Origin: a virus
Taxonomy: Duplodnaviria; Heunggongvirae; Uroviricota; Caudoviricetes
Virus record (IMG/VR): IMGVR_UViG_2703718848_000009
Reading direction: 5' to 3' (one strand)
DNA: 14,606 nt
Position 1 is the first letter of the stretch, and every line of letters begins with the position of its first letter. A program made the position numbers and the translations under genes. Positions 1 through 14,606 of the stretch are shown in pieces. The notes below the pieces were generated by a model. It was not told where the DNA came from. It did no database searches and saw nothing but the letters and a program-made list of their open reading frames with translations.

Positions 1-75
1 CCAAGGTTACAATGGCACAAATGCGGCACAGGAGGAAACGTGGTGTATTTAAATATGGGGTAACTCTTTGATTTT

Positions 76-104: not shown

Positions 105-152
105 TCCACAATCAATTGATTTATAATACATTTAATTCATTCCATTTAACTT

Positions 153-177
153 GATACCCCCAAAGATACCCCCATTT
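153..177. promoter_or_regulatory. Tandem GATACCCCCA motifs just inside the left att repeat (putative integrase arm-type or other protein-binding sites)
   Basis: gatacccccaaagataccccca at 153-176; near-identical tandem at 14410-14430 (atacccccaaaagtaccccca), an inverted copy at 14381-14387, and a single copy at 6469-6477. Confidence 0.35.
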
Positions 178-349
178 AAATTTCCTATCCCGACGGAGAA
201 CGATGCTCAATAATTATGAGTTAGTTCTTACGACCCCATAAAAGTTAAAAAATCATGATATTAAACAAAACATCTTTAACAAGTATTCATCACTTATACA
301 ACATTATTTATTAATCATCACATTTGAAACAAAACATCAGAAATTATTT

Positions 350-1129
350 TTATTCATGAAACTCCTTCCAAGTATTAATATATTCTTTAACTGCTTCATT
401 ATCCGAAAATCCTTTTCCACCATCAATAATATATTTTACGTTTTTCCAGTCCATATACACAGACACAATAGCAACTAAATTTACCAGTTTAACTGGTAAC
501 ATATTCATAAAAATATCTAAGTAGTAATCTTGATGTTCTTCAGGGCATTTATCCTTAACAACCTTAAAAACAACATATACACATCGCACCATGGAAAATA
601 TGGCCATAGATGAATCCTCATCAATTTTATTTATGTAATTTTTAACATCCTCAATTTCGCAAGCTCCTTTTTCATCTATTTGTTTCTCAATAAAAGCCCA
701 TATTGCCTCTTCCAATTCACTAACAGCAGCAGATGAGCGGTATTCTTTTCCGTTAATGTTAATAGTAAAACAACTAAACTCCTCTCTTTCTGAAGAGATA
801 AGGTTATAAAAACCGTCTTCAAACCGTTTTAGAAGAACGTCTTTCTCTTGTCTTCTTTCGTCTTTAATTAGTTGCTCGTTTGCTTCTCGTTGAAGTTTCA
901 AGGAATTAATGAGCATAACAATTGTAATGAAGGTCAAGATAGGATTAAGCACACCTCCTACAAAATCCCCGAAAGTGCCCCAATCACCTTTATCATTGGA
1001 AAAACCCATCCATTTGCTAGCATTAAAGATATCTAACGGGCTATCCCAATGATTGAAATGAGAAAAGTAAAAATACCATACAATAGCTATTAATATAAGT
1101 GAAATAACTTTGATTGAGGGCATCTTCAT
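350..1129 (-). CDS. Hypothetical membrane-anchored protein with two N-terminal transmembrane helices and a ~180-aa soluble C-terminal domain; candidate effector of a two-gene cargo system
   Basis: 259-codon ORF. Hydrophobic segments VISLILIAIVWYFYF and FVGGVLNPILTFITIVMLINSL near the N-terminus. ATG at 1129-1127 lies immediately after the TAA of the upstream gene (TAA-ATG juxtaposed). Strongly AT-rich compared with the core of the island. No recognisable catalytic motif. Confidence 0.7.
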   Translation of the reverse strand: MKMPSIKVISLILIAIVWYFYFSHFNHWDSPLDIFNASKWMGFSNDKGDWGTFGDFVGGVLNPILTFITIVMLINSLKLQREANEQLIKDERRQEKDVLLKRFEDGFYNLISSEREEFSCFTININGKEYRSSAAVSELEEAIWAFIEKQIDEKGACEIEDVKNYINKIDEDSSMAIFSMVRCVYVVFKVVKDKCPEEHQDYYLDIFMNMLPVKLVNLVAIVSVYMDWKNVKYIIDGGKGFSDNEAVKEYINTWKEFHE

Positions 1130-1957
1130 TTACAATATTTCTCTAATTATATAAGCCTTGAGCTCTCCAATATGATCGCGCAACTCATAAGCAGAAATGG
1201 TTATAGGTATAAAAGCGTCTTTACCACCTCTGTTATTCCTATCAAGATTCCTTGAAAACTTATTTTTCTGAGACTGCAATACATGTTCCCAATTAAGATG
1301 GTGTCTAAAGGCAATTGAATCTGACTGTCTATCTAATAACAATCGACCAGTTCCTGTTAACATATTAAACCTAGTTATAATAACATTTTCTTCTACTGGT
1401 TGAGCAGATTCATGCTCTACATTGATATTGAAGAGCGTCTGCGTATCCATTTTAGCAACAACTAATTTTTTAGTTGGTGTTCTTCTTCTCAGAAGTACAT
1501 TATATTTTTGTTTCTCAACTGTTTTATGTAAATTCTGTATAGGTTCCTGAATTCTTATCAAAAGTTGTTTTTCAAGCGGTTTAAGACGCTCTACTAAGTC
1601 GATTGCTTTCTGGCTCTTAAGATGGTGAGCTATTCCCATTCCTTTAGAGATGTAATATGACATAACATCAAAAAAAACACCCCTGCCAATTTCATTAAAT
1701 CTTTTTATCTTTTCAGGATCATCAATTCTAAGTTCAAAATTTTGTCCAAACGATCCATCAAATGTATGTTTGAACATATTCCTAAGCCCATGTATAGAGG
1801 TTGATTTTTTGGGGACTGAATCATCTAAAATAGTGCTTGTTGTAATTTGGGTGATGTCAGAAGCTCCAGCAAAAACCTTTATGCCGGAATTCATTTCTAA
1901 TTCTTCAAAATCGTTCTGCCCATGTCCAACCACAACATCCATATCTAAGTTTATCAT
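1130..1957 (-). CDS. Hypothetical cytoplasmic protein (275 aa), first gene of the AT-rich two-gene cargo operon; candidate sensor/partner
   Basis: 275-codon ORF with ATG at 1957 and an AAAGAG Shine-Dalgarno-like element ~7 nt upstream. No predicted TM segments. N-terminal hydrophobic strand plus Gly-rich loop (DVVVGHGQ). Translationally coupled to the downstream membrane protein. No confident family assignment from motif inspection. Confidence 0.7.
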   Translation of the reverse strand: MINLDMDVVVGHGQNDFEELEMNSGIKVFAGASDITQITTSTILDDSVPKKSTSIHGLRNMFKHTFDGSFGQNFELRIDDPEKIKRFNEIGRGVFFDVMSYYISKGMGIAHHLKSQKAIDLVERLKPLEKQLLIRIQEPIQNLHKTVEKQKYNVLLRRRTPTKKLVVAKMDTQTLFNINVEHESAQPVEENVIITRFNMLTGTGRLLLDRQSDSIAFRHHLNWEHVLQSQKNKFSRNLDRNNRGGKDAFIPITISAYELRDHIGELKAYIIREIL

Positions 1958-2182
1958 ATGTTACTCTTTCAGAATTATCGTACATTAATTAAACAACATG
2001 CTATTTCCTTATATTATGTAGAAAACTTGAGTAGACGGCTATAGACAAATTCATACAATTCTGACTTTGTCTCAAAAACTTGAGTTATAACACTTCCAAC
2101 GTATGTAACGCACTGAAGCAACTGTTACTTAGAGCGCGTGTAGCCAAAAATCCCCGCTGGCGGTGCTGGTGGGTGGCAAGTT

Positions 2183-2440
2183 TTGACAGATGCATCCAAC
2201 GATCTGCACATAAAGTTTTCTAAAGCGGCGCGGTTGACACACTNNCGAAAAACCTTATCAAACCTTAGCATTTCTAAGCATAGCAACTTGACACTTTTCG
2301 CGATTTTTTCGGCTTTTTGACGTGGTAAATCTGGCACAAACCCAGTAATGGCGGGGATTACAGCGAGGTTGACACTTTTTCGCGTTCAGAGTGTAAAGTG
2401 TCAACCTGGCAAGCTGCTCAACTTGACACTTTTTGATGTC
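2183..2440. repeat. Array of TTGACAC(T)TTTTCG direct repeats (4 good copies plus variants and one inverted copy); candidate regulatory or iteron-like region between the HTH gene and the cargo operon
   Basis: TTGACAC at 2234, 2288, 2369 and 2423 (spacing 54/81/54 bp), each followed by a T-run and CG. Related TTGACA/TTGACG at 2183 and 2318; inverted GTGTCAA at 2398. NN at 2244-2245 falls inside one copy. Confidence 0.5.
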
Positions 2441-2966
2441 ATTGATGGTCTGATTTTTCCCATTCAGCCAGGGCGTTTAGTCCGGCTTCGCTCCAGTTAT
2501 CCAGCTCGTCAGGACAAGCATCAGCCACATAACAGACCTCACGTCGCAGCGTACCAATCACCAGTTCGGCATTCTGCCTGAGATCATATTGCTCGAAATA
2601 AAACTCAGCATCGCCGTCATCCATCCAAATCCCGCCATCATCAAGAAATTGCACTTCCCAGTCTAATTCCCCGGCTGCATCCAGCACACGTTGCTGTATG
2701 TCGTCGTCCGTTACTGGCGCAGGGATTATACCGTCTCTGGCCTTAACTGCTTTCCAGAACTCGCCCCACGTCATTTCCAGCGTTCTTTCTGGCCACATTT
2801 CAGAAACGGTGTCTTTCCCCTGTGCCGGTGGGCTGTTCCGCTGCTCTGTCGCCTCCACATCAATTTTTTTGCCAGACATGATCACTTCGCCTTTCTCGAT
2901 CCAGTCGTAAACTGTCTGGCGGCTTACGCCTTTGTATTTGGCGTATTCGGCTTTACTCATCAACAT
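2439..2966 (-). CDS. DNA-binding protein with N-terminal excisionase/AlpA/MerR-type helix-turn-helix and an acidic C-terminal domain
   Basis: N-terminus MSKAEYAKYKGVSRQTVYDWIEKGEV is a typical excisionase-family HTH. GAGGTGA Shine-Dalgarno 5 nt upstream of the ATG at 2966; the ORF-track extension to 3047 lacks an RBS. C-terminal half is Asp/Glu-rich. Confidence 0.7.
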   Translation of the reverse strand: MLMSKAEYAKYKGVSRQTVYDWIEKGEVIMSGKKIDVEATEQRNSPPAQGKDTVSEMWPERTLEMTWGEFWKAVKARDGIIPAPVTDDDIQQRVLDAAGELDWEVQFLDDGGIWMDDGDAEFYFEQYDLRQNAELVIGTLRREVCYVADACPDELDNWSEAGLNALAEWEKSDHQ

Positions 2967-3065
2967 GTAGCTCACCTCATGCATATACGATAAAAAATAA
3001 TTTAATGCGAAAAGGGAATGCGTTGTGGGTATGGAGGAAAGGGGCAATAACCGCCCCTTACTGAT

Positions 3066-3338
3066 TCAGTTGCGCCAGGATGGCTGGCTAAGCGTGGTTT
3101 TCATTACATCATTGACGACCTGCTTTACGATTTCTGTGTTGGCAGTCGTGCTTTCAACATCAACAAAGCCATAATCGCCAATTTCCACCGTCAGGGATTC
3201 CAGTTTCTTCCCCAGTGCATCAGGCAACTCTCCACTGAACCGGTGCCGAAGATTTTCCACCAGCAAAGCCCTGAATGCCTCGCTGTTCTCTTTTTTCTGC
3301 CATAGCTGGCGTTTATCCACTCTGATATTTAATTTCAC
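3066..3338 (-). CDS. Hypothetical protein (90 aa), translationally coupled to the upstream small regulator
   Basis: ORF start overlaps the stop of the 55-aa gene (ATGA overlap at 3335-3338). No recognised motif. Confidence 0.5.
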   Translation of the reverse strand: MKLNIRVDKRQLWQKKENSEAFRALLVENLRHRFSGELPDALGKKLESLTVEIGDYGFVDVESTTANTEIVKQVVNDVMKTTLSQPSWRN

Positions 3339-3502
3339 AGCCTCACCTCTTTAAGTGCCTTATCCATCAGTTGCCGGGCAATAACATGAATCGACGGTGC
3401 CACACCAAGCACAGATTTCTGACGCTTTTCGGCCTGGATACGTTGCAGGGCTTCGATCTGCCCCCGGGAAAGTAAAACTGGCTTTACTCCGTGATTTTTC
3501 AT
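3335..3502 (-). CDS. Small putative DNA-binding regulator (55 aa, possibly ribbon-helix-helix-like)
   Basis: ATG at 3502 preceded by GAAGGGA Shine-Dalgarno. Sequence MKNHGVKPVLLSRGQIEALQRIQAEK... fits a strand-helix-loop-helix pattern. The longer ORF-track version (to 3658) runs through the AT-rich palindrome array and is probably an over-extension. Confidence 0.5.
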   Translation of the reverse strand: MKNHGVKPVLLSRGQIEALQRIQAEKRQKSVLGVAPSIHVIARQLMDKALKEVRL

Positions 3503-3521
3503 GATGATCCCTTCTGAATGA

Positions 3522-3578
3522 CAATAATTGCAATTATTGCAATTATTGAAATAATACCATCGATAATTGCAATAAATG
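3522..3578. promoter_or_regulatory. Array of AT-rich palindromic repeats (CAATAATTG / CAATTATTG with TTGCAA cores), putative operator upstream of the 55-aa regulator gene
   Basis: CAATAATTG-CAATTATTG-CAATTATTG at 3522-3548 and ATAATTGCAATAAAT at 3564-3578, i.e. TTGCAA cores at ~9-bp spacing, directly upstream of the RBS at 3503-3520. Confidence 0.45.
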
Positions 3579-3780
3579 AAACAAAAAGCATCAATAAACC
3601 AACCTTCGGCACTAAATGCTCTGATTTTTCTGCAAAGGTATGGCAGATGTTGCTGCATGCAAACATAAAGGAAATAGCAGAAGAAACAGCGGGGAGTGAA
3701 AAGGGGAAGTTTTTATAAATACACGATTGTCGCCTCACTGCAGGTTAACAGCCACAAACCCCATGATAATAACTTGTTAA

Positions 3781-4104
3781 TTATTTCATCAGATTTTTCA
3801 TTATTTGCGCGATTGAGTACACAAGCAAAAACTCGGCAGCCGCAAGAGTATAAAAAACATAGATTCGCTTAGCCCACCGACGATGAAAGAACTCCTCAGC
3901 ATGGCCGAATGTTCGAGATACAAGCCATGCACCTACTGCACACAGAGCAGGTGCAATGAGCACAGTTATAAACCAGATTGTGATGCCCATCCCATGCCTA
4001 CTGATAATAGCCATTGGTATTGCAAAAATGAATGTTAGAGCAGCATTAGCTAATAGAATATCTTTTAAAGTATTTTCAATTAGTTTTTCTAGATTATCTT
4101 TCAT
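3781..4104 (-). CDS. Small integral membrane protein (107 aa, about three predicted TM helices)
   Basis: Hydrophobic stretches ALTFIFAIPMAIIS, ITIWFITVLIAPALCAVGAWLV and YVFYTLAAAEFLLVYSIAQI. AT-rich coding sequence. The RBS contains a G7 tract (C7 on the plus strand, 4110-4116). Confidence 0.65.
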   Translation of the reverse strand: MKDNLEKLIENTLKDILLANAALTFIFAIPMAIISRHGMGITIWFITVLIAPALCAVGAWLVSRTFGHAEEFFHRRWAKRIYVFYTLAAAEFLLVYSIAQIMKNLMK

Positions 4105-4130
4105 CTAATCCCCCCCGTTGAACATTAATA

Positions 4131-4157
4131 TATAAAAGCCCCTTACTAAGGGGCTTT
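4131..4157 (-). terminator. Rho-independent terminator downstream of the lipoprotein gene
   Basis: Perfect inverted repeat AAAGCCCCTTA / TAAGGGGCTTT at 4135-4157. On the minus strand the stem is followed by TTTTATATATT. Lies 12 nt after the lipoprotein stop at 4169. Confidence 0.6.
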
Positions 4158-4168
4158 GCACGGATTGT

Positions 4169-5311
4169 TTAAAGGGAACTTTTTTTCGCCCCTTCAATTT
4201 CTTCCTGACAAATTTCGTCATTTGTAAATGAGTACTGCAGATAGACATATCCCTGAGTGGAATTGTTCGCTCTGGCCTCAATAGAGATAGTATCGATATT
4301 GTTTTTTAATGGTATTTCTTTTGTTCCCTTCCATGTGGCAGATAAGAAGCGTTCTTTTTTGTTTAGCCCCCTCATCCAGTCCTGAGGATCTTTCCAAATT
4401 GAACCAGCCAGCAAAAAGTCTGTAGTATCAGCCTTTCCATACAGAGAACTTAAAGAATTACTCAATTCTTCAAACTTGGATTTAAGAGCCAATCCATAGC
4501 TATCAGTATCAATATTTTTTCCTAAAGCCCGTATTTGACATAAACCAGCTTTCGGGGAGATCAACAAACCATACATTTCAAAATCTGCGTTTTGCTTCGG
4601 TAATTTATCAGAAGTATACAGATTCACACTGTCTGGTAGTGGCTTGAGCTTAGCACCGATCATATCTTCGATGTTTTTCTGTGTAAGACCGGCTTCTAAG
4701 CCAAACGGACCATCCGCTGGCGGGAGTAAAGGAAGTTGCCCTTGGGAATTTTTGGCTGTTACTTCCGTTTCAGTACTGTTTTTTGCGTCATTATCTTGTA
4801 CTGATGCCAGCTTAACTTCAGCGAGGCCATACTTGGCTGTGAGGTACTTTTGCTGCAACATTGCCATGGTCTGCTCTTCAGTGGCAACAGTAGATAATTT
4901 TAGTACCTTTATCAGACCACCACTATACTGACGAGCATCAGCTTTGGCTTCGTTGATTTTTGCATCTAAGCTGTCAATTTCAGTTTTAATTGAAGCCGCA
5001 AGCTCAGGATCAGGTTTTACTCCAGATACAACAACATCAATTTTGGCACCTGATTCAATAGCATTAATACGCTGTTCCAAAAGCGCTTTATTAGTTCCTA
5101 ATATTTCCAGTCTTGCTGTTGTCAGATTTTTTATCAACCCACCAGAAAACTGCTGGTCAACTTCCTTAGCTGCTGATATTTCACCTTCCGTTTGCGACAG
5201 TTCAGCTTTAAGAGCCGCTACTTCCTGTTTCTGTTCTGGAGTTAACTCTTCTGGCCCACATCCGGTTAACATTACTATACCGACTAATGTTGCAATTAAA
5301 GTTTTATTCAT
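4169..5311 (-). CDS. Lipoprotein (380 aa) with an internal tandem duplication
   Basis: Signal peptide MNKTLIATLVGIVMLTGC with lipobox LTGC. Two copies of a [QR]Q[FY]SGGLIK-containing segment (around residues 52 and 127). Coding sequence is AT-richer than the replication core. Confidence 0.8.
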   Translation of the reverse strand: MNKTLIATLVGIVMLTGCGPEELTPEQKQEVAALKAELSQTEGEISAAKEVDQQFSGGLIKNLTTARLEILGTNKALLEQRINAIESGAKIDVVVSGVKPDPELAASIKTEIDSLDAKINEAKADARQYSGGLIKVLKLSTVATEEQTMAMLQQKYLTAKYGLAEVKLASVQDNDAKNSTETEVTAKNSQGQLPLLPPADGPFGLEAGLTQKNIEDMIGAKLKPLPDSVNLYTSDKLPKQNADFEMYGLLISPKAGLCQIRALGKNIDTDSYGLALKSKFEELSNSLSSLYGKADTTDFLLAGSIWKDPQDWMRGLNKKERFLSATWKGTKEIPLKNNIDTISIEARANNSTQGYVYLQYSFTNDEICQEEIEGAKKSSL

Positions 5312-5445
5312 ATCCCTATTCCAAATGAAAATATTCAGATTAATCTTATCAGGAACCCAGATGCAATTGAATATTCATCTGCTCAGCAACGTAGTAGATT
5401 TCCTCAGAAAGCATCAACAAAAAACCAAGAGAATCCCATCCTCTG

Positions 5446-5733
5446 TTACTGACTACAATTGTTCTTTTTTTGGTATTTCCTGAATGCCTCACCATTGGGC
5501 TGATGTAATCCCATCCCGGCATGTGCCCGGCTGATGGTTTCGCGCATCTCCCCGAAATTATCCTGCCTTGCTGGTGGGCGTGCTGCCTTGTGGATACATT
5601 CCGCGCGACGTTTTGCCGCCTGTTCCCGTGCCTTGTCATCATTCGCCAGCATGATGACCTCAGCCCACCGCGCCGCCGCTCTCCGGTACAGACCACGCGC
5701 TTCCAGTGCTTCCGCTTTGCTGTCGTGAATCAT
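5446..5733 (-). CDS. PerC-family transcriptional activator-like protein
   Basis: KAEALEARGLYRRAAARWAEV matches the conserved PerC/Pch core as I recall it. AAGGAG Shine-Dalgarno upstream. Start overlaps the stop of the upstream ProQ-like gene (ATGA). Confidence 0.65.
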   Translation of the reverse strand: MIHDSKAEALEARGLYRRAAARWAEVIMLANDDKAREQAAKRRAECIHKAARPPARQDNFGEMRETISRAHAGMGLHQPNGEAFRKYQKKNNCSQ

Positions 5734-6272
5734 GCGCCTATTGTCTCCTTTGCTGCCCGGCGCTGGCGTTTGCGCTTCTCATTCAGCGCCACCAGCCGCG
5801 TTTCTGCGTCCTGTTGTTCCTGTGGTGTCACCTCGCCGCACGGCTGGCCTTTCAGGTCGTAGCGTACCCCACCAGCCATTAAGGCGCGGTAATAGTGCGG
5901 ACACTGCGCATAAGATGCCAGCGTCGCACGCAATGCCCCTGGCCCGAATGCCAGCCCCCTGACGGCGAGATCCTGCATCAGGTCGTCGAATATCCCCACC
6001 TTAAGCGGCTTCGGTGCTTCCCGGCTGAATAAGTCAGGCCACAACTCAGTGAGGCGGTTAACGCGCCTGCGGTTTTTGCGCTGGCGTTTGGTCATATGCC
6101 GCCACGGTGTCGCCCCTGTGGGCTTTTGCTGCGCTTTCTGGTTACCGGGCATCACTTTATGCGCCGATGTGGTTTTATCCTGCTCCTGCGCCGCCTGCGT
6201 CGTTTTCTGCGGCGTGCCGTAAATGCCTTTCGGTTTTCTGTTAATGGTCAGCTTAGTCATGCTTTGCCCCAT
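5730..6272 (-). CDS. ProQ/FinO-domain RNA-binding protein
   Basis: PKPLKVGIFDDLMQDLAVRG...LRATLASYAQCPHYYRALMAGGVRYDLKGQPCGEVTPQEQQDAETRL parallels the ProQ N-terminal FinO-like domain (recalled as ARPLKIGIFQDL...[35 protein letters not shown]). The true start may be the Met at 6260 rather than 6272. Confidence 0.75.
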   Translation of the reverse strand: MGQSMTKLTINRKPKGIYGTPQKTTQAAQEQDKTTSAHKVMPGNQKAQQKPTGATPWRHMTKRQRKNRRRVNRLTELWPDLFSREAPKPLKVGIFDDLMQDLAVRGLAFGPGALRATLASYAQCPHYYRALMAGGVRYDLKGQPCGEVTPQEQQDAETRLVALNEKRKRQRRAAKETIGA

Positions 6273-6594
6273 CGTTACAACTGTCTACCGATATAATTGT
6301 TTGATTTATTTAATGTTATTAACACATAACAAAAAAACAATCTGCAAACTGTCTACCAACTCTCTACAGTATTAATACATTGATAATTAATGACTTTTAC
6401 TAAATGGTAGACAGTGTAGATAGTTAAAAGAAAAATTTTAAAAATGAACCCATAACTATCTATTTTTAGATACCCCCGTGGTTTAGAAATATAAAATAAA
6501 CTGTCCACCTCTCTACCACATTAAAAATACCTATATAATTCAAAACATTAATTAGTAGATGGTTGGTAGAGGGTTAAGTGTATCTGTCTACCAA
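6273..6594. repeat. Iteron-like CTGTCTACC repeat array in AT-rich DNA, candidate replication origin downstream of the primase gene
   Basis: CTGTCTACC at 6281-6289, 6349-6357 and 6584-6592; inverted GGTAGACAG at 6407-6415; variants CTGTCCACC (6501), TCTCTACC (6510) and GGTAGAG (6565). Flanked by A/T runs. A 20-N gap follows at 6595-6614. Confidence 0.5.
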
Positions 6595-8391
6595 NNNNNN
6601 NNNNNNNNNNNNNNCTGGTAACCATCCATCAGCATCTTTATCTAACAGAACATTTGTGATCGTTCGCCCTTTATCTGGACCTTTAGTACATTTAGCCCGC
6701 TTGTACTCCTTTCCGTACTCAGCCATTGCCCCTGGCATATCTGTACCAAAGCGTGTCAGTGATACCGGTTTTCCCAGACCATGCGCAGACATATAAGCCA
6801 AATAAGCATGATACAGATATCGCCTCGGGCTAAATGGCACTATTTCTGCATTACCTACTATCATTCCCTCACATTTAACCAACGACATCAGATAACCGCA
6901 GAAGTCCACCAGCGAATCACCTTCACGCTTTATCAACAGTGCTTCTTCTGATTTTTGCTGCTCATAAAGTAGTCTTTTCGCTTCGTCCTGGTCGGCAAAT
7001 CGTGTAAGCAAATGGCGAATCACTACTGCCAGTTCCCCTTCTATCTTTTTCGCCAGCATCGGATCGCGTTCGTTCTCTGGTACAACCTCAGAGAAATTAA
7101 ATATTACTCGTCGACGCGAGATCCCCCCACTACGGTCGCTGAATGACATGGCATAATTGTTTACTACCAGCACTACCGCAGGAACGCGCGTGGAATAGGG
7201 CGCTTTGTGTTTCGGATCGATAGCCACCTTGTCACCGCCTGTAATGGCCTTAATCCCAGCACCATCACCTGCGTAGCGGGTCATGTCAGGCATGATAATC
7301 AGAGAATATCCCACCACTAACGCTCGTTCCCTCGCGTCTTCCAGCGCCTTCATGCTCGCCGATACTGTATTGGCCTTACCCGCCAGCATGGTACAAATCT
7401 CCGCCATCACACTTTTACCGCTTCCGCCCGGCCCCGTTACCTCAAGGAATAACTGCCAGTCGTACCGGTTCGCCAGTACCATGAATAATGCCGCCAGTAC
7501 GCGATCCGCTTTACGAGCATTATCCGCCACCGAACGACGCAACCACTTCCAGAAATTCGGCGCATGTGTTGCCAGCGTTTCCCCCTCTTCTGGCGGGCTG
7601 AACGGTAATTCACTGGCATTTAACAACCAGTCATTTTTGTTGTGTTCCCGAAAATTTCCTGTCCTGATATCAAAAACACCGTTACTGAACCCAATAAGAT
7701 TTCTGTCCGCTCCCCCCATAACAGGTAGACTCAATTTCATTGTCTCTACGGCAAATTTAATGGCGTTTTGCGAATAACTAATTTCGGCATCAATAAAAAT
7801 CTTCGCCATAGACCGCTGGAGTTCCTTATCAGATACAGGCTCCCAAACAATTCCGTTGTAATGGTGAACTACATCAGAATCATCATTTATCGCCAGTGCT
7901 CCTCCATAATGTTCAAGTAACACTTCCCCTCTCTGGCTGGCTCCCATCTGATTTAATGCAGGCTTGGGTAGACCACTATTTTTTGTAGCTAATTTCATCA
8001 CTGAAACTTCCCCGTGCTCAGCCTGTTCGCGGATCCGTTGCAGGTAGTCGCGCCAGTTCTCCGGTTCCTGGTCGGTGATACCTTTGTATAATTTCGCCTC
8101 CTGTACGCCAGCCAGCGCCAGCTTTTCAGCGATAGTATTGATCTGGATTGGCTCTATCTCCCCCGCGATATAGACACGCGCAAAACGGCGTTTCTCGTCA
8201 ATAATGCGGATATTCGCCAGGTCTGCCAGTTGCTTTGGCCCCAGGTAAACAGGAGGCACGTTATCGCCGTGTTTTCGTCCTTCACTTTCAATCCAGTGTT
8301 GAGCATGGGCGTAAGCATCCGTCCCGGCAAAAATGATTACCTCAGTGAATTTATCCTTCGGCTGATATTTTAGACTCGGTGCGTTTTTCAC
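6574..8391 (-). CDS. Phage/plasmid primase, P4-family (alpha-like) with SF3-helicase-type P-loop NTPase domain
   Basis: 605-codon ORF. Walker A motif VTGPGGSGKS and a downstream Walker B-like hydrophobic-acidic stretch (LIIMPDM). The C-terminus is interrupted by the N-run at 6595-6614 (X residues in the translation), so the 3' end is uncertain. Confidence 0.85.
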   Translation of the reverse strand: MKNAPSLKYQPKDKFTEVIIFAGTDAYAHAQHWIESEGRKHGDNVPPVYLGPKQLADLANIRIIDEKRRFARVYIAGEIEPIQINTIAEKLALAGVQEAKLYKGITDQEPENWRDYLQRIREQAEHGEVSVMKLATKNSGLPKPALNQMGASQRGEVLLEHYGGALAINDDSDVVHHYNGIVWEPVSDKELQRSMAKIFIDAEISYSQNAIKFAVETMKLSLPVMGGADRNLIGFSNGVFDIRTGNFREHNKNDWLLNASELPFSPPEEGETLATHAPNFWKWLRRSVADNARKADRVLAALFMVLANRYDWQLFLEVTGPGGSGKSVMAEICTMLAGKANTVSASMKALEDARERALVVGYSLIIMPDMTRYAGDGAGIKAITGGDKVAIDPKHKAPYSTRVPAVVLVVNNYAMSFSDRSGGISRRRVIFNFSEVVPENERDPMLAKKIEGELAVVIRHLLTRFADQDEAKRLLYEQQKSEEALLIKREGDSLVDFCGYLMSLVKCEGMIVGNAEIVPFSPRRYLYHAYLAYMSAHGLGKPVSLTRFGTDMPGAMAEYGKEYKRAKCTKGPDKGRTITNVLLDKDADGWLPXXXXXXXLVDRYT

Positions 8392-8678
8392 TTCTTACCT
8401 CCCGCAACCAACATTGCCCGGATTTTTTTAATATTCGTGGCTGCACGTCTCGCCACTGCCTGTTGTTTGTTTTCCACCAGAATAAAATCACGATCAAACT
8501 GACGGCGCGGCATTACGCAGTCATATTCGTAAGCCTCACGGCGGTAGGTGATATTGCCTGGCGTAACGTGACGAATAACCACCCGTCCCCCGCGTCTGGT
8601 GTCCCGGAAAATATCACCGGGGCGGATTTCAGGCCGAGAGAGGCCGCTGGCAGTAAAGCCAGAATTTTTCTTTTTCAT
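8388..8678 (-). CDS. Hypothetical basic protein (96 aa), immediately upstream of and overlapping the primase start
   Basis: ATGA overlap with the primase start at 8388-8391. Part of the tightly packed minus-strand operon. Confidence 0.55.
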   Translation of the reverse strand: MKKKNSGFTASGLSRPEIRPGDIFRDTRRGGRVVIRHVTPGNITYRREAYEYDCVMPRRQFDRDFILVENKQQAVARRAATNIKKIRAMLVAGGKK

Positions 8679-8682
8679 GGTT

Positions 8683-8883
8683 TTATTTTCCTGTCAGCAG
8701 TTCCGGTTTTATTTCCGCACGAATACAAAGTTCAGAAAAAAATTCAGGAGAACCAACAATCTCATTACTTTTCAGTCGGCATTGTGATTTCACTTTCCCT
8801 TTATCCAGGTAAACCAGTACGCGTCCGGTGAAATCATCTGGCACATTAAGCACTACGGGTACATGCGCTTCATGATTATGCAT
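8683..8883 (-). CDS. Hypothetical protein (66 aa)
   Basis: ORF in the operon; 4-nt gap to the next gene and 8-nt overlap with the previous one. Confidence 0.45.
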   Translation of the reverse strand: MHNHEAHVPVVLNVPDDFTGRVLVYLDKGKVKSQCRLKSNEIVGSPEFFSELCIRAEIKPELLTGK

Positions 8884-9109
8884 GGCTTACATCCTCCGTG
8901 AATTTTCTTCTGTAACGCGTCTCTGCCACATATTCCGCATAGTCCGACGCAATACTAAGAATCATTTCACCCTCTGACTTGTAGCCACTGGTATTGATAA
9001 GAAAATATGCAGCTTTCATCATGTCAGCAACGCTCAACAATGCGCCCTCTGCATCTTCCGGTGCGCCATCAAATTCCCGTTTCAGGGAATTAAAACGATC
9101 ATCACGCAT
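8876..9109 (-). CDS. Hypothetical acidic protein (77 aa)
   Basis: 8-nt overlaps with both neighbours, consistent with translational coupling. Confidence 0.45.
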   Translation of the reverse strand: MRDDRFNSLKREFDGAPEDAEGALLSVADMMKAAYFLINTSGYKSEGEMILSIASDYAEYVAETRYRRKFTEDVSHA

Positions 9110-9467
9110 GTTTACCCCCCTGAATGACCTGATAACCGCAACTGGTCAGCAACTCGATAAATTCCGGCAGTGTGCCGAAACAGCAATCATCACGCAGCCG
9201 TTCGCGGGATACTTCAACGCCGTTTTCGTAGTGACTCACCATACGCCCGGTAAAATGCAGATCATCATCGTGATGGCTCGTTGACGGCTTAATCAGTCGC
9301 GCACGTTCCGCCAGTTCCAGCAATGCTTCAACGCTTCCGGCAATTGCACCATCCGGCAGGTGGTAATTACGCACTATGCGCCCGTTCTCCACATTGACCA
9401 GCAACTGCCCGGTAAATTTCTCGTCAAACTGAATGCTGTTAAGGTCAGAAATTGACAGGTTATGCAT
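9102..9467 (-). CDS. Hypothetical protein (121 aa)
   Basis: AGGAGGTG Shine-Dalgarno 5 nt upstream of the ATG at 9467. The ORF-track start at 9485 lies inside that RBS, so 9467 is preferred. ATGCATAA-type overlap with the upstream gene's stop. Confidence 0.55.
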   Translation of the reverse strand: MHNLSISDLNSIQFDEKFTGQLLVNVENGRIVRNYHLPDGAIAGSVEALLELAERARLIKPSTSHHDDDLHFTGRMVSHYENGVEVSRERLRDDCCFGTLPEFIELLTSCGYQVIQGGKHA

Positions 9468-9684
9468 GGTGCACCTCCTGCACATCAGCCATGATAATTT
9501 TTCCGGCCTTATCCAGTGCCTGATCGGCTTTTAGCTGCACAAATGCTAAATAATGGGAGATGCATTCTGATTCTCTGGCTGCGTGTTTATGCGCCACACC
9601 AGCGATAGCAGAAATCTCAATAAGTGAATCCATCAGCGTTTTGATAGCGTCTACCGCTGCATCAGGCCATGTTGCATTACACAT
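9460..9684 (-). CDS. Hypothetical protein (74 aa)
   Basis: ORF with 8-nt overlaps on both sides within the operon. Confidence 0.45.
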   Translation of the reverse strand: MCNATWPDAAVDAIKTLMDSLIEISAIAGVAHKHAARESECISHYLAFVQLKADQALDKAGKIIMADVQEVHHA

Positions 9685-9880
9685 GTTCCACCTCCTGGCG
9701 AATACGGGCGGCGAATACCATCACGCAGCCATCAGGAGATTGCTGGCGTGCTTCCTGTTCGCTGGTGGCCTCGATGTGAATTACGCGCGGTTGTGCCGTG
9801 CTCAGGGCGATAAAACGCCAGATGTATTTATTCAGGTTGTGCGAGTCCCGCCCTTGCGGGTGTGTGGTATGATTTCTCAT
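9677..9880 (-). CDS. Hypothetical protein (67 aa), probable first gene of the replication operon
   Basis: ATG at 9880 preceded by GAGGT Shine-Dalgarno (5-nt spacing). It is the in-frame C-terminal part of the 435-codon ORF, but has its own RBS and lies just downstream of the operator palindromes. Confidence 0.45.
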   Translation of the reverse strand: MRNHTTHPQGRDSHNLNKYIWRFIALSTAQPRVIHIEATSEQEARQQSPDGCVMVFAARIRQEVEHV

Positions 9881-10984
9881 AGCTACCTCGATACTCTTGC
9901 TATCGTTGGTGGTTAGACGCCCTGCATGTGTGCCACCACTGCGGGGCGTTGTCGTTTCTGCACCTTGCATCAACAAGGTGTTGAACACCAATTTAAGCCC
10001 AGGTGTTAAACACGTCAAGTGTTGAACACTTATTTTTTTTCCTGCATACTGCATTTGTTTTTTGTAAGGGGTACACAACATGGCGACAAAAGCAGTAAAC
10101 GCAAAATCACAAACAGTTGCGGCAAGGGTTCCGCATGAAGTTATGAACAATGTTGAGGCGGTAAAAATGCCTGGTGAAAGTACAGGGCAGTTTGTAACAG
10201 CAGCATTAAAGCGAGAAGTTGAATACCGCCAGCGCCGCAAGGCCAAAGAACAGGAGTAACCATCACCAGCGCCGTGGTGTGAGGAACTACGGTGCATCGT
10301 TTTACAGGGCTGCGCCATGACCAACAAAGAATCAACCAATACACCATCACCGGCACGGAAAAGACAGCGCAGAAAGATAGCGTACGAGCATGAGTCAAAC
10401 AGATTCGCGCCCTGTGCGTTTATCCTTGAGAAATTCCTTAAAGAGTACAGGCGCACAAAAATGGGGTCGCATACCTGGAAAACATCGCGGCATGGCAATG
10501 TTAAAGAGCAGGAATAGCCCACCAGCAAGCCAGCATATTCACCATAATGACCCTCAGTTAAACATAGAGTCATTGGTGCAAAGCTGACACATTGCCCACC
10601 AGCCGCAAATCTGGCATTGTTGGCGATGCGTTCAAGTATGTAGCTTTCCCACTGGCGGCCCTCTGCGGTCGCCTTTGTTTTATCCAGAACGAAATCAGAC
10701 ATCAGATTGATCAGCACCTGGCGACCTGACAAAATCGCATCAGTCGCGCCACCAGCAAAATTTTTTGCTTTCCGGACAGTGTGACCAACGACATTTTGCA
10801 GCAAAATATTCTGCATTTCTGGCGTGCTGTAGTAACGGTGATCAGCGCCTTCACTCTGTGCGACCACAACGCTATAATCTGCCTCGTAGACAGTAAGCAA
10901 TATGGCGCAGTAGGCTATTCGTTCACAAAGGCGCTCCGGCAACGGGGCGCTTTCTCTTTTTGTAACGGTCAGAGCGTTACACAT
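9677..10984 (-). CDS. Uninterrupted 435-codon ORF; only the N-terminal ~140 residues look protein-like. Probably a real ~140-aa hypothetical protein whose stop is missing or shifted, running on antisense to the RHH gene
   Basis: ATG at 10984 overlaps the stop of the antirepressor-like gene (translational coupling). Residues 1-~140 have ordinary composition; the remainder is Cys/Ser/Thr/Arg-rich and low-complexity and lies opposite the plus-strand RHH gene and operators. Confidence 0.35.
   Translation of the reverse strand: MCNALTVTKRESAPLPERLCERIAYCAILLTVYEADYSVVVAQSEGADHRYYSTPEMQNILLQNVVGHTVRKAKNFAGGATDAILSGRQVLINLMSDFVLDKTKATAEGRQWESYILERIANNARFAAGGQCVSFAPMTLCLTEGHYGEYAGLLVGYSCSLTLPCRDVFQVCDPIFVRLYSLRNFSRINAQGANLFDSCSYAIFLRCLFRAGDGVLVDSLLVMAQPCKTMHRSSSHHGAGDGYSCSLALRRWRYSTSRFNAAVTNCPVLSPGIFTASTLFITSCGTLAATVCDFAFTAFVAMLCTPYKKQMQYAGKKISVQHLTCLTPGLKLVFNTLLMQGAETTTPRSGGTHAGRLTTNDSKSIEVAMRNHTTHPQGRDSHNLNKYIWRFIALSTAQPRVIHIEATSEQEARQQSPDGCVMVFAARIRQEVEHV
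9961..10031. promoter_or_regulatory. Cluster of GTGTT-N-AACAC palindromic operators in a divergent promoter region
   Basis: Perfect palindromes GGTGTTGAACACC (9977-9989) and AGTGTTGAACACT (10018-10030), imperfect GGTGTTAAACAC (10002-10013), plus inverted repeat CACCTTG...CAAGGTG (9961-9980). Followed by a T8 tract and the RBS of the plus-strand ribbon-helix-helix gene. Confidence 0.5.
10080..10259 (+). CDS. Ribbon-helix-helix (CopG/Arc-like) transcriptional regulator, 59 aa; not in the supplied ORF track (below its length cut-off)
   Basis: ATG at 10080 with AAGGGG Shine-Dalgarno 7-8 nt upstream; TAA at 10257-10259. Translation MATKAVNAKSQTVAARVPHEVMNNVEAVKMPGESTGQFVTAALKREVEYRQRRKAKEQE shows the classic RHH pattern (beta-strand TVAARVP, helix, G-x-S loop, helix FVTAAL). 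Palindromic operators immediately upstream. Confidence 0.55.
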   Translation: MATKAVNAKSQTVAARVPHEVMNNVEAVKMPGESTGQFVTAALKREVEYRQRRKAKEQE

Positions 10985-11768
10985 GGCTGTTTTCCTCCAT
11001 GCGACGGGCTAACCAACGCTGCGAAAGACGAATTAATTCAGCCTTCCGCTGGTGGTAGTCCTGGCCTAACTCAATCAGCGTGATATTGCTCTGCTCAAGG
11101 TAAGAAAGGTGCTCAAGCTGCAACGTGCTCATGTGGTCGCGTGGTTCGCCTGTAATGCCGTTCGCCAGTGCCCACTGTTTTGCAGTCATGCCACCCAGCA
11201 CGATACGCGCCAGCATGTTCGCTTCCGTGGTGTAGTGGTGCTGGAGTGTGTTTTTACCCAGTTCAGCCCGGTACGCCTCCAGCGCGGCACACATTGGCTT
11301 AAAGTAGCTGGCAACTGTGATACGGGCTTTCAGTTCCCGGCGTAACGCTGCGGAACGAACAGGCGCAACCTTGTGTAGCTCCTCCTCGCATTTGATAAAG
11401 TACTGGCGAACGGCGCGGCCCTGTTCGGTACGTTCGACCATCGCCAGTTCTTTCGCCATGTTCACTGTGATGATGTACTCAAGAGCGGTTTGCTGGCGAG
11501 ATTTTGCGCTCACCGGATCGGGTCGGCTCAAATATTCAACAACCTCATAATCCACGCCTTCCGTGAACCCGTATTCTTCAATGNNCCACGAACGGAAAAC
11601 GCGCCCTACACCTAACGCCTTATGTAACGCTCTGGCGCTAACAATAGTGGTTTCACTCCCGCCAATAACGCCGGAAATAATCGGGATAATTTCGCCGAAA
11701 TTTTGCAGATTCTGGTTTTCAGGCCGAACGAAGCCCCGCCCCTGTACGGGCGTTTTTGGAAATTTCAT
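10977..11768 (-). CDS. Phage-associated protein, possibly antirepressor/Bro-N-like DNA-binding protein (function uncertain)
   Basis: 263-codon ORF directly downstream of alpA. Contains ALHKALGVGRVFRSW, reminiscent of phage antirepressor N-terminal domains. One residue is masked by NN at 11584-11585. Confidence 0.6.
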   Translation of the reverse strand: MKFPKTPVQGRGFVRPENQNLQNFGEIIPIISGVIGGSETTIVSARALHKALGVGRVFRSWXIEEYGFTEGVDYEVVEYLSRPDPVSAKSRQQTALEYIITVNMAKELAMVERTEQGRAVRQYFIKCEEELHKVAPVRSAALRRELKARITVASYFKPMCAALEAYRAELGKNTLQHHYTTEANMLARIVLGGMTAKQWALANGITGEPRDHMSTLQLEHLSYLEQSNITLIELGQDYHQRKAELIRLSQRWLARRMEENSHV

Positions 11769-11845
11769 AAAAACTCCTGCTATCGAATTAAGTTACTTTT
11801 ATTTGCTGGTGGATAGCTGGGGGCAATAGCCCCGTAGCCATTTAA

Positions 11846-12043
11846 TCAGGTAGCTGTTCCGCGTGATTCCGCAATACGCTGATTAATCCACTCGTCAATT
11901 TCACTCTCAACGAAAGCAATAGCTCGCGAGCCAATTTTAACTGATGCAGGAAATTTACCTTGCCCCATAAGGCGATAAATCCATGCCTTGCTATATCCAG
12001 TTCTACGCTGAACTTCTGTTAAACGAATAAGCGTATTTGACAT
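11846..12043 (-). CDS. alpA: AlpA-family phage transcriptional regulator (HTH)
   Basis: MSNTLIRLTEVQRRTGYSKAWIYRLMGQGKFPASVKIGSRAIAFVESEIDEWI matches the AlpA consensus (L.RL.EV...TG.S...IYRL...G.FP..VK.G.R...W.ESEI.EWI). GAGGT Shine-Dalgarno 7 nt upstream. Confidence 0.85.
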   Translation of the reverse strand: MSNTLIRLTEVQRRTGYSKAWIYRLMGQGKFPASVKIGSRAIAFVESEIDEWINQRIAESRGTAT

Positions 12044-12111
12044 ATATTTACCTCATAACGTCTACTCAATTTGACGAGGTAATCATGGCACAGAAATAAC
12101 GAATATTTTCA

Positions 12112-12222
12112 TACCCTCAGGCCTAATGGTTACCGGAAGGAAATCTACCCTAAGGGTGATGGTAAAATTGACGGGGAAGATAAAAAAATACCCTCAGGGT
12201 AACAGTAAATCACCCTCAGGGT
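12112..12222. promoter_or_regulatory. Four copies of the palindrome ACCCT-N-AGGGT upstream of alpA; putative operator array
   Basis: accctcagg at 12113; accctaagggt at 12147-12157; accctcagggt at 12190-12200 and 12212-12222. Located between the end of the 267-aa gene and the alpA start. Confidence 0.5.
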
Positions 12223-12237
12223 ATGCGGTATGGTGCG

Positions 12238-13041
12238 TTAATCCGGCTTTGCGTTCTTTTGGCTGTTGTCTCGGTTAATAGGGCAGGCAGTCCTCTCTAT
12301 GAGCGTTGCAAGTGCATTACTTGCCCCCCACTGCTTAAGTTCCCTGGTTATCGCTTCTTGATTTCCCCTGGTGGCAAAATCATTTTCTGGATCGTAATTG
12401 GCCCACTCTCTGTTTCTAATCTCAATAGCCTTAGCTAATGGGTCTTTATCCCAGTATTTATATAAGTGTATCGGGCGCTCTTGCTCTAACTGCTCTATCC
12501 TTGCCCTTAACTCTGCGTTTTCTTTTTCCAGCATTGCGATTTGGGATAATAAATCATCCTCTGTACGCAACTCTTTCTTTTCAATATCGCGTCCTTGTGC
12601 CTCGTCATTTTCAGAAGAGTTAGCGCCTTCCAGCTTCGTTAACGCGTCAAGGACATCGGGAAAAATTGAGAAAATTTCACCCCTTATAAATCCAATGTTC
12701 TCAAATTCGGGATCTTCCCAATAACCGGACACCAGAAAACCATTTTCATCCCTCTCACCAGGTAAACAACCACGTTTCCGAACCGCATTCAGATTTCTAT
12801 AAAGAACATCATTATCAAATTCATCCCGATACGGGTTACAAAAAGATTCCAACAGCTTAAATTCATTTACTGTGTACAGGCGGATATGTTCTCCGCTTAT
12901 TCTCCTGAGTATCCAAGTTATGACATCTGAAACATCATAATCATCACCAGCGACCTTAAGCACGACCTCAAGAAATTCACGTAAAGAAATAAAATCTTTT
13001 TTGTATTCGTTTAATTCGGCATGAATATCAATCATACGCAC
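12238..13041 (-). CDS. Hypothetical protein (267 aa) with a central coiled-coil segment; AT-richer accessory gene between int and alpA
   Basis: 267-codon ORF with GAGGTG Shine-Dalgarno upstream. Heptad-like stretch LLSQIAMLEKENAELRARIEQLEQER. Composition noticeably more AT-rich than int or alpA. Confidence 0.65.
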   Translation of the reverse strand: MRMIDIHAELNEYKKDFISLREFLEVVLKVAGDDYDVSDVITWILRRISGEHIRLYTVNEFKLLESFCNPYRDEFDNDVLYRNLNAVRKRGCLPGERDENGFLVSGYWEDPEFENIGFIRGEIFSIFPDVLDALTKLEGANSSENDEAQGRDIEKKELRTEDDLLSQIAMLEKENAELRARIEQLEQERPIHLYKYWDKDPLAKAIEIRNREWANYDPENDFATRGNQEAITRELKQWGASNALATLIERTACPINRDNSQKNAKPD

Positions 13042-13163
13042 ACCTCAGCGTCCTCTACTGTAGTGGCTGTACCAGTCCGTCGAGGTGTACGGATTTTCGG
13101 GAGCGACCCTAGACACAGCCTTTTCTTTCGTCGCTCAAAGTCTACTACTGTATACTCAACCAG

Positions 13164-14378
13164 TCACCCGCATTTTCCGAACTCACCATGCACCACATTT
13201 CCGCCATGCTCGAGCGAATCCATATAATCAGCGTACCACTGAAGCATTTCCCGCCGCCCATCCAGATATTGCGCATGGTTGTATGTGCCACGAATTGAGT
13301 TTTTATCGACGTGCGCAAGCTGTGTCTCTATCCACGCGGTGTTATAGCCCTGCTCATGCAAAATGGTGCTCATAGTGTGCCGGAAGCCATGACCAGTAAC
13401 CTTTCCGTTATAGCCGATGCGTTTAAATACTTGGTTTATGCTAGCCTCGCTCATTGTTTTCCTTGGATCATTACGGCCGGGAAACATAAGCGGATAATTG
13501 CCAGTTAGTTCTTTAATCTGCCCAATAAGCGAAAGAGCCTGCTCAGACAAAGGCACTACATGAGGGCGACGCATTTTCATCCGTGAAGCAGGTATCTCCC
13601 AGATAGCCTTGTTGAGATCGATTTCATCCCATAATGCACCGCGCAGTTCGCCAGTCCGCAAACCGGTGATAATCAGTAAACGAGCCGCCATAACAACCAA
13701 TGCACTTCCTGAGTAACTGGACAATGCCTTGAAAAAATCAGGTAATTCTTTGGCTGTGAGGAAAGGATAATGATTAGATTCATGACCTTGCATCGCGCTG
13801 GTGAGATCCGGTGCAGGGTTATACTCAGCACGTCCAGTGACAATTGCATAGCGGAAAACTTCCCCACATCGCTGCCTCACTTTTTTGGCTTTTTCGGTAG
13901 CACCGCGCCCCTCGATGCGCCGCAGCACATTCAGCAGTTCAAGTGGTTTGATTTCGGCGATTGGTTTTTTGCCAATGTAAGGGAACACATCTTTGTTGAA
14001 GGCTTCGAGGATGTCTGAAGCATAACCAGCAGACCATTTTTTTAATTTGCTGCTGTGCCACTCAAGGGCAATATCTTTGAAGGTGTTGTTTAACTGCGTT
14101 TCCCGGGCAATCTTTTCCTCTCGTTTCGCTTCCATCGGATCGATACCCCCAGCGATACCCCTTTTAGCTTCTTCACGTTTTGCACGAGCATCAGCCAAGG
14201 TAACTTCAGGATACACACCTAGTGCTAACAGCTTCTCTTTACCAGCTACACGATACTTGAAGCGCCAATATTTTCCTCCACTAGGTTTTACCAAGAGATA
14301 CAGACCACCACCATCAGCCAGCTTGTAAGCCTTCTCTTTTGGCTTGGCAGTGTCTATTTGACGGGCATTGAGTTTCAC
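13164..14378 (-). CDS. int: Tyrosine recombinase, P4-type integrase
   Basis: 404 aa. N-terminal MKLNARQIDTAKPKEKAYKLADGGGLYLLVKPSGGKYWRFKYR is the typical P4-integrase N-terminus. Catalytic-domain residues R..HxxR..Y are present (GLRTGELRGALW, GHGFRHT, RGTYNHAQY). GTG start with GGAGG Shine-Dalgarno. Adjacent to the tRNA-derived att core. Confidence 0.9.
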   Translation of the reverse strand: MKLNARQIDTAKPKEKAYKLADGGGLYLLVKPSGGKYWRFKYRVAGKEKLLALGVYPEVTLADARAKREEAKRGIAGGIDPMEAKREEKIARETQLNNTFKDIALEWHSSKLKKWSAGYASDILEAFNKDVFPYIGKKPIAEIKPLELLNVLRRIEGRGATEKAKKVRQRCGEVFRYAIVTGRAEYNPAPDLTSAMQGHESNHYPFLTAKELPDFFKALSSYSGSALVVMAARLLIITGLRTGELRGALWDEIDLNKAIWEIPASRMKMRRPHVVPLSEQALSLIGQIKELTGNYPLMFPGRNDPRKTMSEASINQVFKRIGYNGKVTGHGFRHTMSTILHEQGYNTAWIETQLAHVDKNSIRGTYNHAQYLDGRREMLQWYADYMDSLEHGGNVVHGEFGKCG

Positions 14379-14380
14379 TT

Positions 14381-14434
14381 GGGGGTACCTCCACTAAACC
14401 GAACAGCAAATACCCCCAAAAGTACCCCCAATTG
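14381..14434. promoter_or_regulatory. TACCCCC motif cluster between int and att (putative arm-type binding sites), counterpart of 153-177
   Basis: GGGGGTA (inverted) at 14381-14387; atacccccaaaagtaccccca at 14410-14430. Confidence 0.35.
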
Positions 14435-14451
14435 ACTGTAGATTTTGGAGT

Positions 14452-14527
14452 ACTTAAGTAGACGTCAAAAGACTAAAAGGGGCGCTAACATGCGGATTAT
14501 AAGAGGTTTTTAAATACTTGAGTAGAC
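14452..14527. repeat. ACTTGAGTAGAC 12-mer motif copies near att, also found upstream of the cargo operon
   Basis: ACTTAAGTAGAC at 14452-14463 and ACTTGAGTAGAC at 14516-14527. An identical 12-mer is at 2025-2036 and a partial copy (AAAACTTGAGTT) at 2075-2086. Confidence 0.4.
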
Positions 14528-14534
14528 TTGGGGA

Positions 14535-14576
14535 GACATTAGAATGGTGCCGATAATAGGAGTCGAACCTACGACC
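14535..14576 (-). other. 3' 42 nt of a tRNA-Thr(CGU) gene (T-arm, acceptor 3' strand, CCA); attachment-site core, not an intact tRNA in this window
   Basis: Reverse complement reads TAATGCGAAGGTCGTAGGTTCGACTCCTATTATCGGCACCA, matching from memory the 3' part of enterobacterial thrW from the anticodon loop onward. The sequence 5' of this (14577-14606) cannot form an anticodon stem or D-arm. Confidence 0.6.
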
Positions 14577-14606
14577 TTCGCATTACCGAAACTCGCGTAA
14601 CCACAT

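Follow-up and report, generated by a model that had tools for sequence, protein, structure and literature searches.

Genes and attachment sites of the island

The window, by which we mean the whole 14,606-nt stretch of DNA analysed here (IMG/VR record IMGVR_UViG_2703718848_000009), holds an island of ~14.5 kb between two att cores (~76-14561), with E. coli chromosomal sequence to its left and a piece of a tRNA gene to its right. The features on which the argument draws are as follows.

1-75, E. coli chromosomal flank (B arm) from the LysR-pseudogene/paoD side of the thrW hotspot, shared with loci L008 and L003
76-93, int-distal att (attL), AATGGTGC followed by GATAATAGGA, the tRNA 3'-end sequence minus one C
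154-173, plus strand, paired ATACCCCC-N4-ATACCCCC in the P' arm (repeat family D2 and motif scan), a candidate integrase arm-type site
13052-13119, minus strand, int-alpA RNA motif (Rfam RF02996; 45.5 bits, gathering score 35.8, E=7.7e-07)
13164-14378, minus strand, tyrosine integrase (404 aa; Arm-DNA-bind_3, Phage_int_M and Phage_integrase domains)
14379-14542, P arm of the island att; the same arm precedes intact thrW in STEC276 and in L027
14410-14429, paired ATACCCCC-N4-GTACCCCC in the P arm (repeat search and motif scan)
14543-14561, int-proximal att core, AATGGTGCC followed by GATAATAGGA, inside or beside the last 17 nt of the tRNA; delimited by comparison of attL and attR junctions and from the EcCIMP1 paper
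14545-14586, minus strand, 3' fragment of the thrW tRNA-Thr(CGU), an exact 42-nt match to tRNA positions 35-76; the block doubles as the identity block of the att of a neighbouring island, Y
14587-14606, first 20 nt of the distal (P') arm of Y, assigned from the placement of this 20-mer in relatives

The island's genes are all on the minus strand. Those near int encode the integrase, which was identified from the ORF list, the Pfam domains on an identical protein and a PHROG integrase match, together with a 265-aa protein, AlpA (65 aa; PF05930 on an identical protein) and an AntA antirepressor; the remainder include a gene for a 435-aa protein that is Icd/repressor-like at its C-terminus, several small ORFs, DUF4222, a D5_N/DUF5906/Pox_D5 primase-helicase, ProQ/FinO, PerC and cargo of unknown function. 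The RF02996 motif sits just downstream of int, between int and the gene for the 265-aa protein. No phage structural genes were detected in the island, the one match of this kind being a weak one to TerS/HTH_17. It thus has the int, alpA and primase genes expected of a PICI, in the ~10-20 kb size range and with neither structural nor lysis genes, as well as a specific att with flanking direct repeats (GATAATAGGA at 84-93 and 14552-14561), and judged by this gene set it is a PICI-like (Gram-negative) phage satellite. It may also be induced, excised and packaged by a helper phage; this has been shown only for a relative, EcCIMP1, the PICI of E. coli MP1 located at a tRNA-Thr gene between proA and yagU, which excises on helper-phage induction (PMC11773190).

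The cargo on the attL side is swapped among relatives of the island. The window has two proteins in this slot, of 259 and 275 aa, that belong to PHROGs of unknown function; one relative (L026, 18401-20357) has an AAA_15/AAA_21 ATPase with a DUF4435 protein, a pairing we take to be PARIS-like, and others (L019, L021, L022, L024 and L028, at ~19400-21308) have an ORC/CDC6-like protein with a zinc ribbon. The slot looks like a variable defence-type hotspot; a PADLOC scan for defence systems in the cargo of the island and of Y gave nothing convincing. Another variable position lies in the intergenic region upstream of alpA (~12100-12165), where the window has one copy of the 33-nt unit AGGAAATCTACCCTAAGGGTGATGGTAATCGGG and relatives have two in tandem; the region is likely to be regulatory, and the difference reflects either true variation or the collapse of a repeat in assembly. 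The runs of N in the window (2244-2245, 6595-6614 and 11584-11585) indicate a draft or masked sequence; the 20-N run stands in for 65 nt that are present in two E. coli loci with the same island, L045 and L025, and the NN at 11584-11585 gives rise to an X in AntA. We considered that the AntA of the window might be a rare variant and rejected this, the NN being its sole apparent difference.

Several repeats in and near the two arms are candidate binding sites. Besides the two paired repeats listed above, a pair of the form ATACCCCC-N4-(A/G)TACCCC[C/T] is also found at 14143-14162, at the 5' end of int, and the motif TTRAGTAGAC has four copies (at 2027, 12060(-), 14454 and 14518) against 0.07 expected, two of them in the P arm (14454 and 14518) and one upstream of alpA. 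From their sequence and placement, the paired repeats and TTRAGTAGAC are candidate sites for Int (arm-type) or AlpA binding.

The 10-bp core GATAATAGGA lies at 84-93 in attL and at 14552-14561 in the int-proximal att. Beyond attL, positions 94-121 keep 15/28 matches to the tRNA as the junction continues ACAGAAC..., and STEC276, L025, L044 and other loci share this junction without a difference. A core shortened by the same nucleotide recurs in the attL of an unrelated P4-like satellite (L050), where two islands meet in L027, and in EcCIMP1 (L051) at its distal end; the shortened core is always on the side with the satellite's own arm, even where the sequence to its left is the arm of another element. 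As it tracks the satellite arm in this way, the missing C is probably a feature of the satellite attP, and strand exchange would lie to the left of it, within AATGGTGC. The flanking direct repeat of EcCIMP1, TCCTATTATC, was hypothesised to be its core att (PMC11773190), and the crossover as its authors hypothesised it would fall within GATAATAGGA instead; a circle junction with one C (AATGGTGCGATAATAGGA) would put the crossover in AATGGTGC and one with two Cs would put it in GATAATAGGA. We also considered that the degenerate attL might mark an immobile island, and rejected this because the core that flanks EcCIMP1 is shortened in the same way and EcCIMP1 does excise.

On these comparisons the identity of the island att with thrW does not extend beyond the last ~19 nt of the tRNA, the 'J' class of Islander, and the satellite integrase would recombine within this stretch (core GATAATAGGA and/or AATGGTGC). 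Wherever in it the crossover falls, 14562-14586 is target-derived and outside the att of the island. For annotation this means that the true right boundary of the island is the 10-bp core at 14552-14561, and that the 42-nt fragment is a seam shared with the neighbour, whose breakpoint in the anticodon loop is uninformative about the island's integrase.

The thrW fragment and its probable neighbour, island Y

The last 62 nt of the window consist of TGGTGCCGATAATAGGAGTCGAACCTACGACCTTCGCATTAC (42 nt) followed by CGAAACTCGCGTAACCACAT (20 nt). The 42-mer is present in a single copy in the window, with 0 expected from shuffles, and was compared with the annotated tRNA-Thr of STEC276 and with the ARAGORN tRNA-Thr(cgt) calls in L020 and L027. 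A previous reading of the sequence alone (below, the sequence-only reading) had recognised here the 3' half of a tRNA-Thr(CGU), 42 nt from the anticodon loop to the CCA end, and this is borne out by the exact match to thrW; the coordinates it gave, 14535-14576, are 10 nt too low. Its view that the integrase stands beside a tRNA fragment and not an intact gene likewise agrees with what we find: the fragment is co-oriented with int, the integrase ORF is 166 nt away, ARAGORN calls no tRNA in the window, and no tRNA family in Rfam matches the window at E<=0.1.

The sequence-only reading had further argued that the 30 nt beyond the fragment cannot fold as the rest of a tRNA. The stretch in question is 20 nt (14587-14606) and not 30, and a failure to fold proves nothing where the window ends before a complete tRNA could fit, but the claim that the 5' half is missing stands on the mismatch of sequence. 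Read directly against the corresponding thrW bases, GAATGCGCTGCTCTACCAAC, the tail CGAAACTCGCGTAACCACAT matches at 6/20 positions, and with so few matches the 5' half is truly missing and not simply cut off by the end of the window. If a 1-nt gap is allowed the identity to thrW continues for 4 nt more, which is why BLAST alignments stop at 14590.

The tail could be assigned from its position in other genomes. We counted 27 complete E. coli genomes with the fragment/tail junction, and an exact 32-mer across it occurs in genomes of Phytobacter, Yokenella, Pantoea and Pseudocitrobacter. The tail 20-mer has exactly one copy in each of 14 fetched loci, and in 10/10 of the fetched loci that show both it and int_Y, the integrase gene of Y, it lies at the end of Y farthest from int_Y. 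From this placement, the distal att arm of Y begins with the tail, and the 42-nt block, which runs from the CCA end into the anticodon loop, is the identity block of Y with thrW. Y and the satellite rely on different stretches of the tRNA, so that the break at 14586/14587 marks the boundary of the Y att; the crossover in the anticodon loop proposed in the sequence-only reading is therefore a real boundary that belongs to Y, and it fails as the crossover of the island itself, whose core is in the last ~19 nt.

Island Y has a size of about 9.7-11 kb and encodes a variable distal gene, an XRE-type HTH regulator, a serine recombinase, NIPSNAP, DUF4160 or TIGR04141, and an integrase of 646 aa with DUF6538 and Phage_integrase domains, a family of which we found no mention in the searchable literature. 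The distal cargo slot holds an HNH endonuclease, a 589/590-aa protein, or a DUF4062 protein with a reverse transcriptase; a 59%-identical relative of the 589/590-aa protein is named 'ApeA N-terminal domain-containing'. In strains with Y only (WP2-S18, L008, and Z1323HEC0010, L029) the layout is LysR pseudogene, flank, fragment and tail, Y, int_Y, intact thrW and proA, with Y measuring 9.7-10.8 kb. The sequence of window positions 1-75 precedes the att in WP2-S18, after the LysR pseudogene, and is also present in STEC276 (L003), which has the island only. Intact thrW lies 88 nt beyond int_Y, as an annotated tRNA-Thr, in L008, L029 and L052, and proA is next to int_Y in L030, L032 and L033; in the E. 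coli loci that have the integrase end of Y in chromosomal context, Y always ends at intact thrW-proA.

E. coli and Pseudocitrobacter share a near-identical distal end of Y, to which that of Phytobacter is similar, and integrases 95-100% identical to that of Y are named from Klebsiella, Serratia, Enterobacter and Raoultella. Such near-identical ends and integrases across genera suggest that Y (loci L004-L008, L029-L034 and L052) may have spread recently between genera. Compared with the Y proteins of the tandem contig described below, the cluster representatives of the integrase and the 590-aa protein differ by 1 and 2 residues, respectively, and the closest resolvase is 91% identical.

A probable tandem array and the order of its assembly

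Two E. coli draft assemblies contain the island of the window with no mismatch over 12200-14586 (L025, GCA_000458195.1, and L045, GCA_025468995.1), the latter being 100% identical to the window over 2325-6594 as well. Both share an identical junction through 14606 and then continue into the genes of Y, with 6.3 kb of Y sequence beyond the junction in L025 and 8.4 kb in L045. The L045 stretch ends within int_Y, of which it contains the part for the C-terminal 283 aa (the 3' 852 nt of the gene), and this part is identical to the Y integrase that precedes thrW in Z1323HEC0010. The second int that was predicted further to the right is thus found on a near-identical contig; the sequence stops 1.1 kb before the start of int_Y, and the next ~1.3 kb should contain both that start and thrW. 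A complete genome, KOr024, has the corresponding order with a different first element: a P4-like satellite, the fragment and Y arm, Y, intact thrW and proA.

From these comparisons we conclude that a tandem array very probably occupies the thrW hotspot of E. coli here, the window being its chromosome-distal member and Y lying to the right. The evidence for Y in the source genome consists of the 20 nt of the tail and of the near-identical relatives, and the rest of Y and thrW would follow beyond the end of the window. The main claim of the sequence-only reading, a tandem array with another element to the right, thereby receives strong if indirect support from the tail, from the two assemblies that run into Y and from KOr024, and its alternative of a displaced att is not needed. 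Two of the marks that define such an array are seen here, namely a co-oriented tRNA 3' fragment bounding each member (the fragment at 14545-14586(-) and the degenerate repeat at 76-93) and an integrase for each member (the island's own within the window and int_Y in L045, outside the window). An intact thrW at the end of the array is to be expected by analogy with the E. coli Y loci of known chromosomal context and with KOr024. The chromosomal flank is joined at the left to the island's own arm, so that a co-resident Y at thrW could only be to the right of the island. STEC276 is one of many genomes in which the same island, with the same attL, adjoins intact thrW-proA; the arm on its int side is accordingly a normal attR arm, and this integrase-side arm occurs in 546 complete genomes. 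The exact integrase protein of the window is very common (4,456 blocks), and the matches listed are places with the island alone and one IS-disrupted locus. In the 5,426 complete RefSeq E. coli genomes we found no exact island/Y junction when searching with a chimeric query of island arm, fragment and Y arm (no record covered >=80%), and scans of IMG/VR and JGI metagenome contigs gave no match to it.

The layout we propose is the LysR-pseudogene flank, attL, the 14.5-kb PICI-like satellite, the displaced thrW 3' fragment and island Y; beyond the window we would predict ~9.7 kb of Y with its 646-aa DUF6538 integrase at its end, then intact thrW and proA. Each element, on integrating, would restore thrW and leave a 3' fragment, and with this mechanism it is the older or more distal element that has its int beside a fragment. 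As the att pair of the island (76-93 and 14543-14561) is intact, the island should still be able to excise independently, an ability predicted here from the att sequences. Excision of the satellite would leave the flank joined to the fragment and Y arm, which is the Y-only junction of other strains, and excision of Y would leave the island arm joined to intact thrW, i.e., the solo-island state.

Other explanations of the right end of the window can be weighed against this array. In a free, excised circle (attP) an integrase would also be seen beside the 3' part of a tRNA gene with no 5' half, yet positions 1-75 are chromosomal flank, and the tail is unlike the P' arm of the island itself (ACAGAACATAC..., from 94), which is what a free element would have beyond the tRNA block and what the window does not have. 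An att displaced by rearrangement would account for the fragment too, except that the tail is the arm of another element and not rearranged chromosome; we regard both of these forms as next to impossible. Misassembly through the 42-nt repeat, the island truly being beside intact thrW, might be suspected from the N runs of a draft-quality window and from the many short-read contigs that break at the thrW repeat (L034-L039 and L049). We give it hardly any credence: the join of flank to island arm at the left is unambiguous, two assemblies from different submissions share the junction, and a repeat of 42 nt is shorter than typical read lengths. It is also very unlikely that a mere scar of Y, an arm or a deleted remnant, follows the fragment in place of a functional second element, for L025 and L045, both free of mismatches to the window over 12200-14586, contain the whole gene set of Y, and in 10/10 of the fetched loci that show both the 20-mer and int_Y an island Y lies between them; speaking for a scar are that just 20 nt of Y are visible in the window and that island remnants are frequent at this locus, as with the truncated island of strain C9 and the remnant integrase of MP1.

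The order in which the two elements arrived is a closer matter, because both orders give the same final structure and sequence alone cannot discriminate between them. We somewhat favour the island having integrated first, and Y later into the regenerated thrW, in view of the 546 complete genomes with the island arm against 27 with the Y junction. The opposite order for the same array, in which Y came first and the satellite then integrated into the displaced fragment at the distal junction of Y, falls a little short of even chances in our estimate. The satellite core (AATGGTGC/GATAATAGGA) and the chromosomal left flank are intact at the attL of Y; the thrW-proximal junction of Y has AC or AT, not AA, after the tRNA end, which may make the regenerated gene of a Y lysogen a poorer target; and junctions of the form 'other element's arm, core, satellite arm' exist in EcCIMP1 and L027. 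Against it stand the same difference in counts and the fact that the resulting structure is that of the island-first order. Were it true, the satellite integrase could target a tRNA fragment. The broader proposal that the satellite entered a Y lysogen via the displaced fragment and that integrases of the PICI type routinely use tRNA fragments as secondary attB sites we consider rather unlikely; it would mean that thrW arrays could grow from their distal end and that the order of elements no longer records the order of arrival and, as a weaker corollary, that Y and thrW-proAB might be carried along by in-situ packaging that starts from the satellite.

Comparison with known elements and arrays at thrW

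Returning to the tandem array with Y on the right, the closest characterised relative of its satellite is EcCIMP1, which occupies the same site, has an integrase identical at 389/404 residues (96%) and the same 10-bp repeat (GATAATAGGA on the plus strand of the window), and shares AlpA, AntA, PerC, DUF4222 and Icd-like genes. It too forms a tandem, its neighbour in MP1 being a vat island that has a remnant integrase next to a copy of the att. The two differ in that EcCIMP1 is 19.96 kb and has a TOPRIM/DUF927 primase and P22-like ejection-protein genes, whereas the island of the window is ~14.5 kb and has a D5_N/Pox_D5 primase-helicase and ProQ/FinO. Outside int, no DNA similarity between them was detected by blastn, and within their arrays EcCIMP1 is thrW-proximal while the island of the window is distal.

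The P4-like satellites at thrW (e.g., in KOr024 and ECCRA-119) resemble the island in having a tyrosine integrase, a primase-helicase and an Icd-like gene, in the shortened attL core (ATGGTGCGATAATAGGA) and in occupying the same position to the left of Y; they differ from it in that the island is without psu, ogr/delta and the zinc-binding P4 alpha-type primase, and has AlpA, AntA, PerC and ProQ. Y, for its part, uses the same tRNA and the same identity block, from CCA to the anticodon loop, as the thrW phages (P22, SfV, SfII and the HK75/mEp family, with an attP of the CP4-6 type), which can also follow the integrase of the window-type island in arrays. The arm after the fragment distinguishes them, being GAATTATAAG... 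in the phages and CGAAACTCGCG... in Y, and unlike the phages Y has no phage structural genes.

Arrays of other composition were seen at the same locus. Strain C9 has a remnant of a window-type island, the fragment and then an SfV/phi458-like prophage; L044 and L049 have a window-type int, the fragment and then an arm of the SfV/phi458 type, with prophage genes beyond it in L044; yet another arm follows the fragment in L009; L027 has two related islands in tandem, the second int lying to the left of the island; and ECCRA-119 has an array of three elements. At the junction of Y with the next element in ECCRA-119 (L050, 27718-27810) the fragment is broken after 19 nt by ~33 unrelated nt, after which the tRNA-like sequence ACCTACGACC resumes. 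The record of phage phi458 (L001, OP434518.1), described as 'complete, circular', has E. coli flank, tRNA fragment and phage arm at 461-582; this is the junction of a lysogen attL and not of an attP, so the record seems to include host DNA. The thrW repeat is the exact end point of many short-read (Logan/ENA) contigs with Y or the island (L034-L039 and L049), and one contig of 9,685 nt is Y alone; such ends indicate that draft assemblies systematically break up the arrays at this site.

thrW is listed among integration hotspots, and Islander, which defines tandem arrays at tRNA and tmRNA genes, reports 125 of them (PMC4383910). The arrays described there have an integrase and a co-oriented tDNA fragment for each member and an intact gene at one end, as the array proposed here would, and the Islander attP classes would place Y in the anticodon-loop class (A) and the satellite in that of the T-stem/acceptor junction (J) (PMC4383910); we see no difference in kind between those arrays and this one. 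An integrase beside a tRNA fragment in an array is thus a common and already described arrangement that implies no new biology, and this particular pairing of the island with Y was not encountered in the 5,426 complete E. coli genomes. The elements that stack at thrW are of at least four kinds, i.e., PICI-like satellites, P4-like satellites, island Y and phages of the SfV/P22 type, and 24/60 (~40%) of the best-matching complete genomes for the P arm have no annotated tRNA-Thr at the site; tools that delimit islands, and catalogues of satellites, should expect to meet integrases with no annotated tRNA-Thr next to them.
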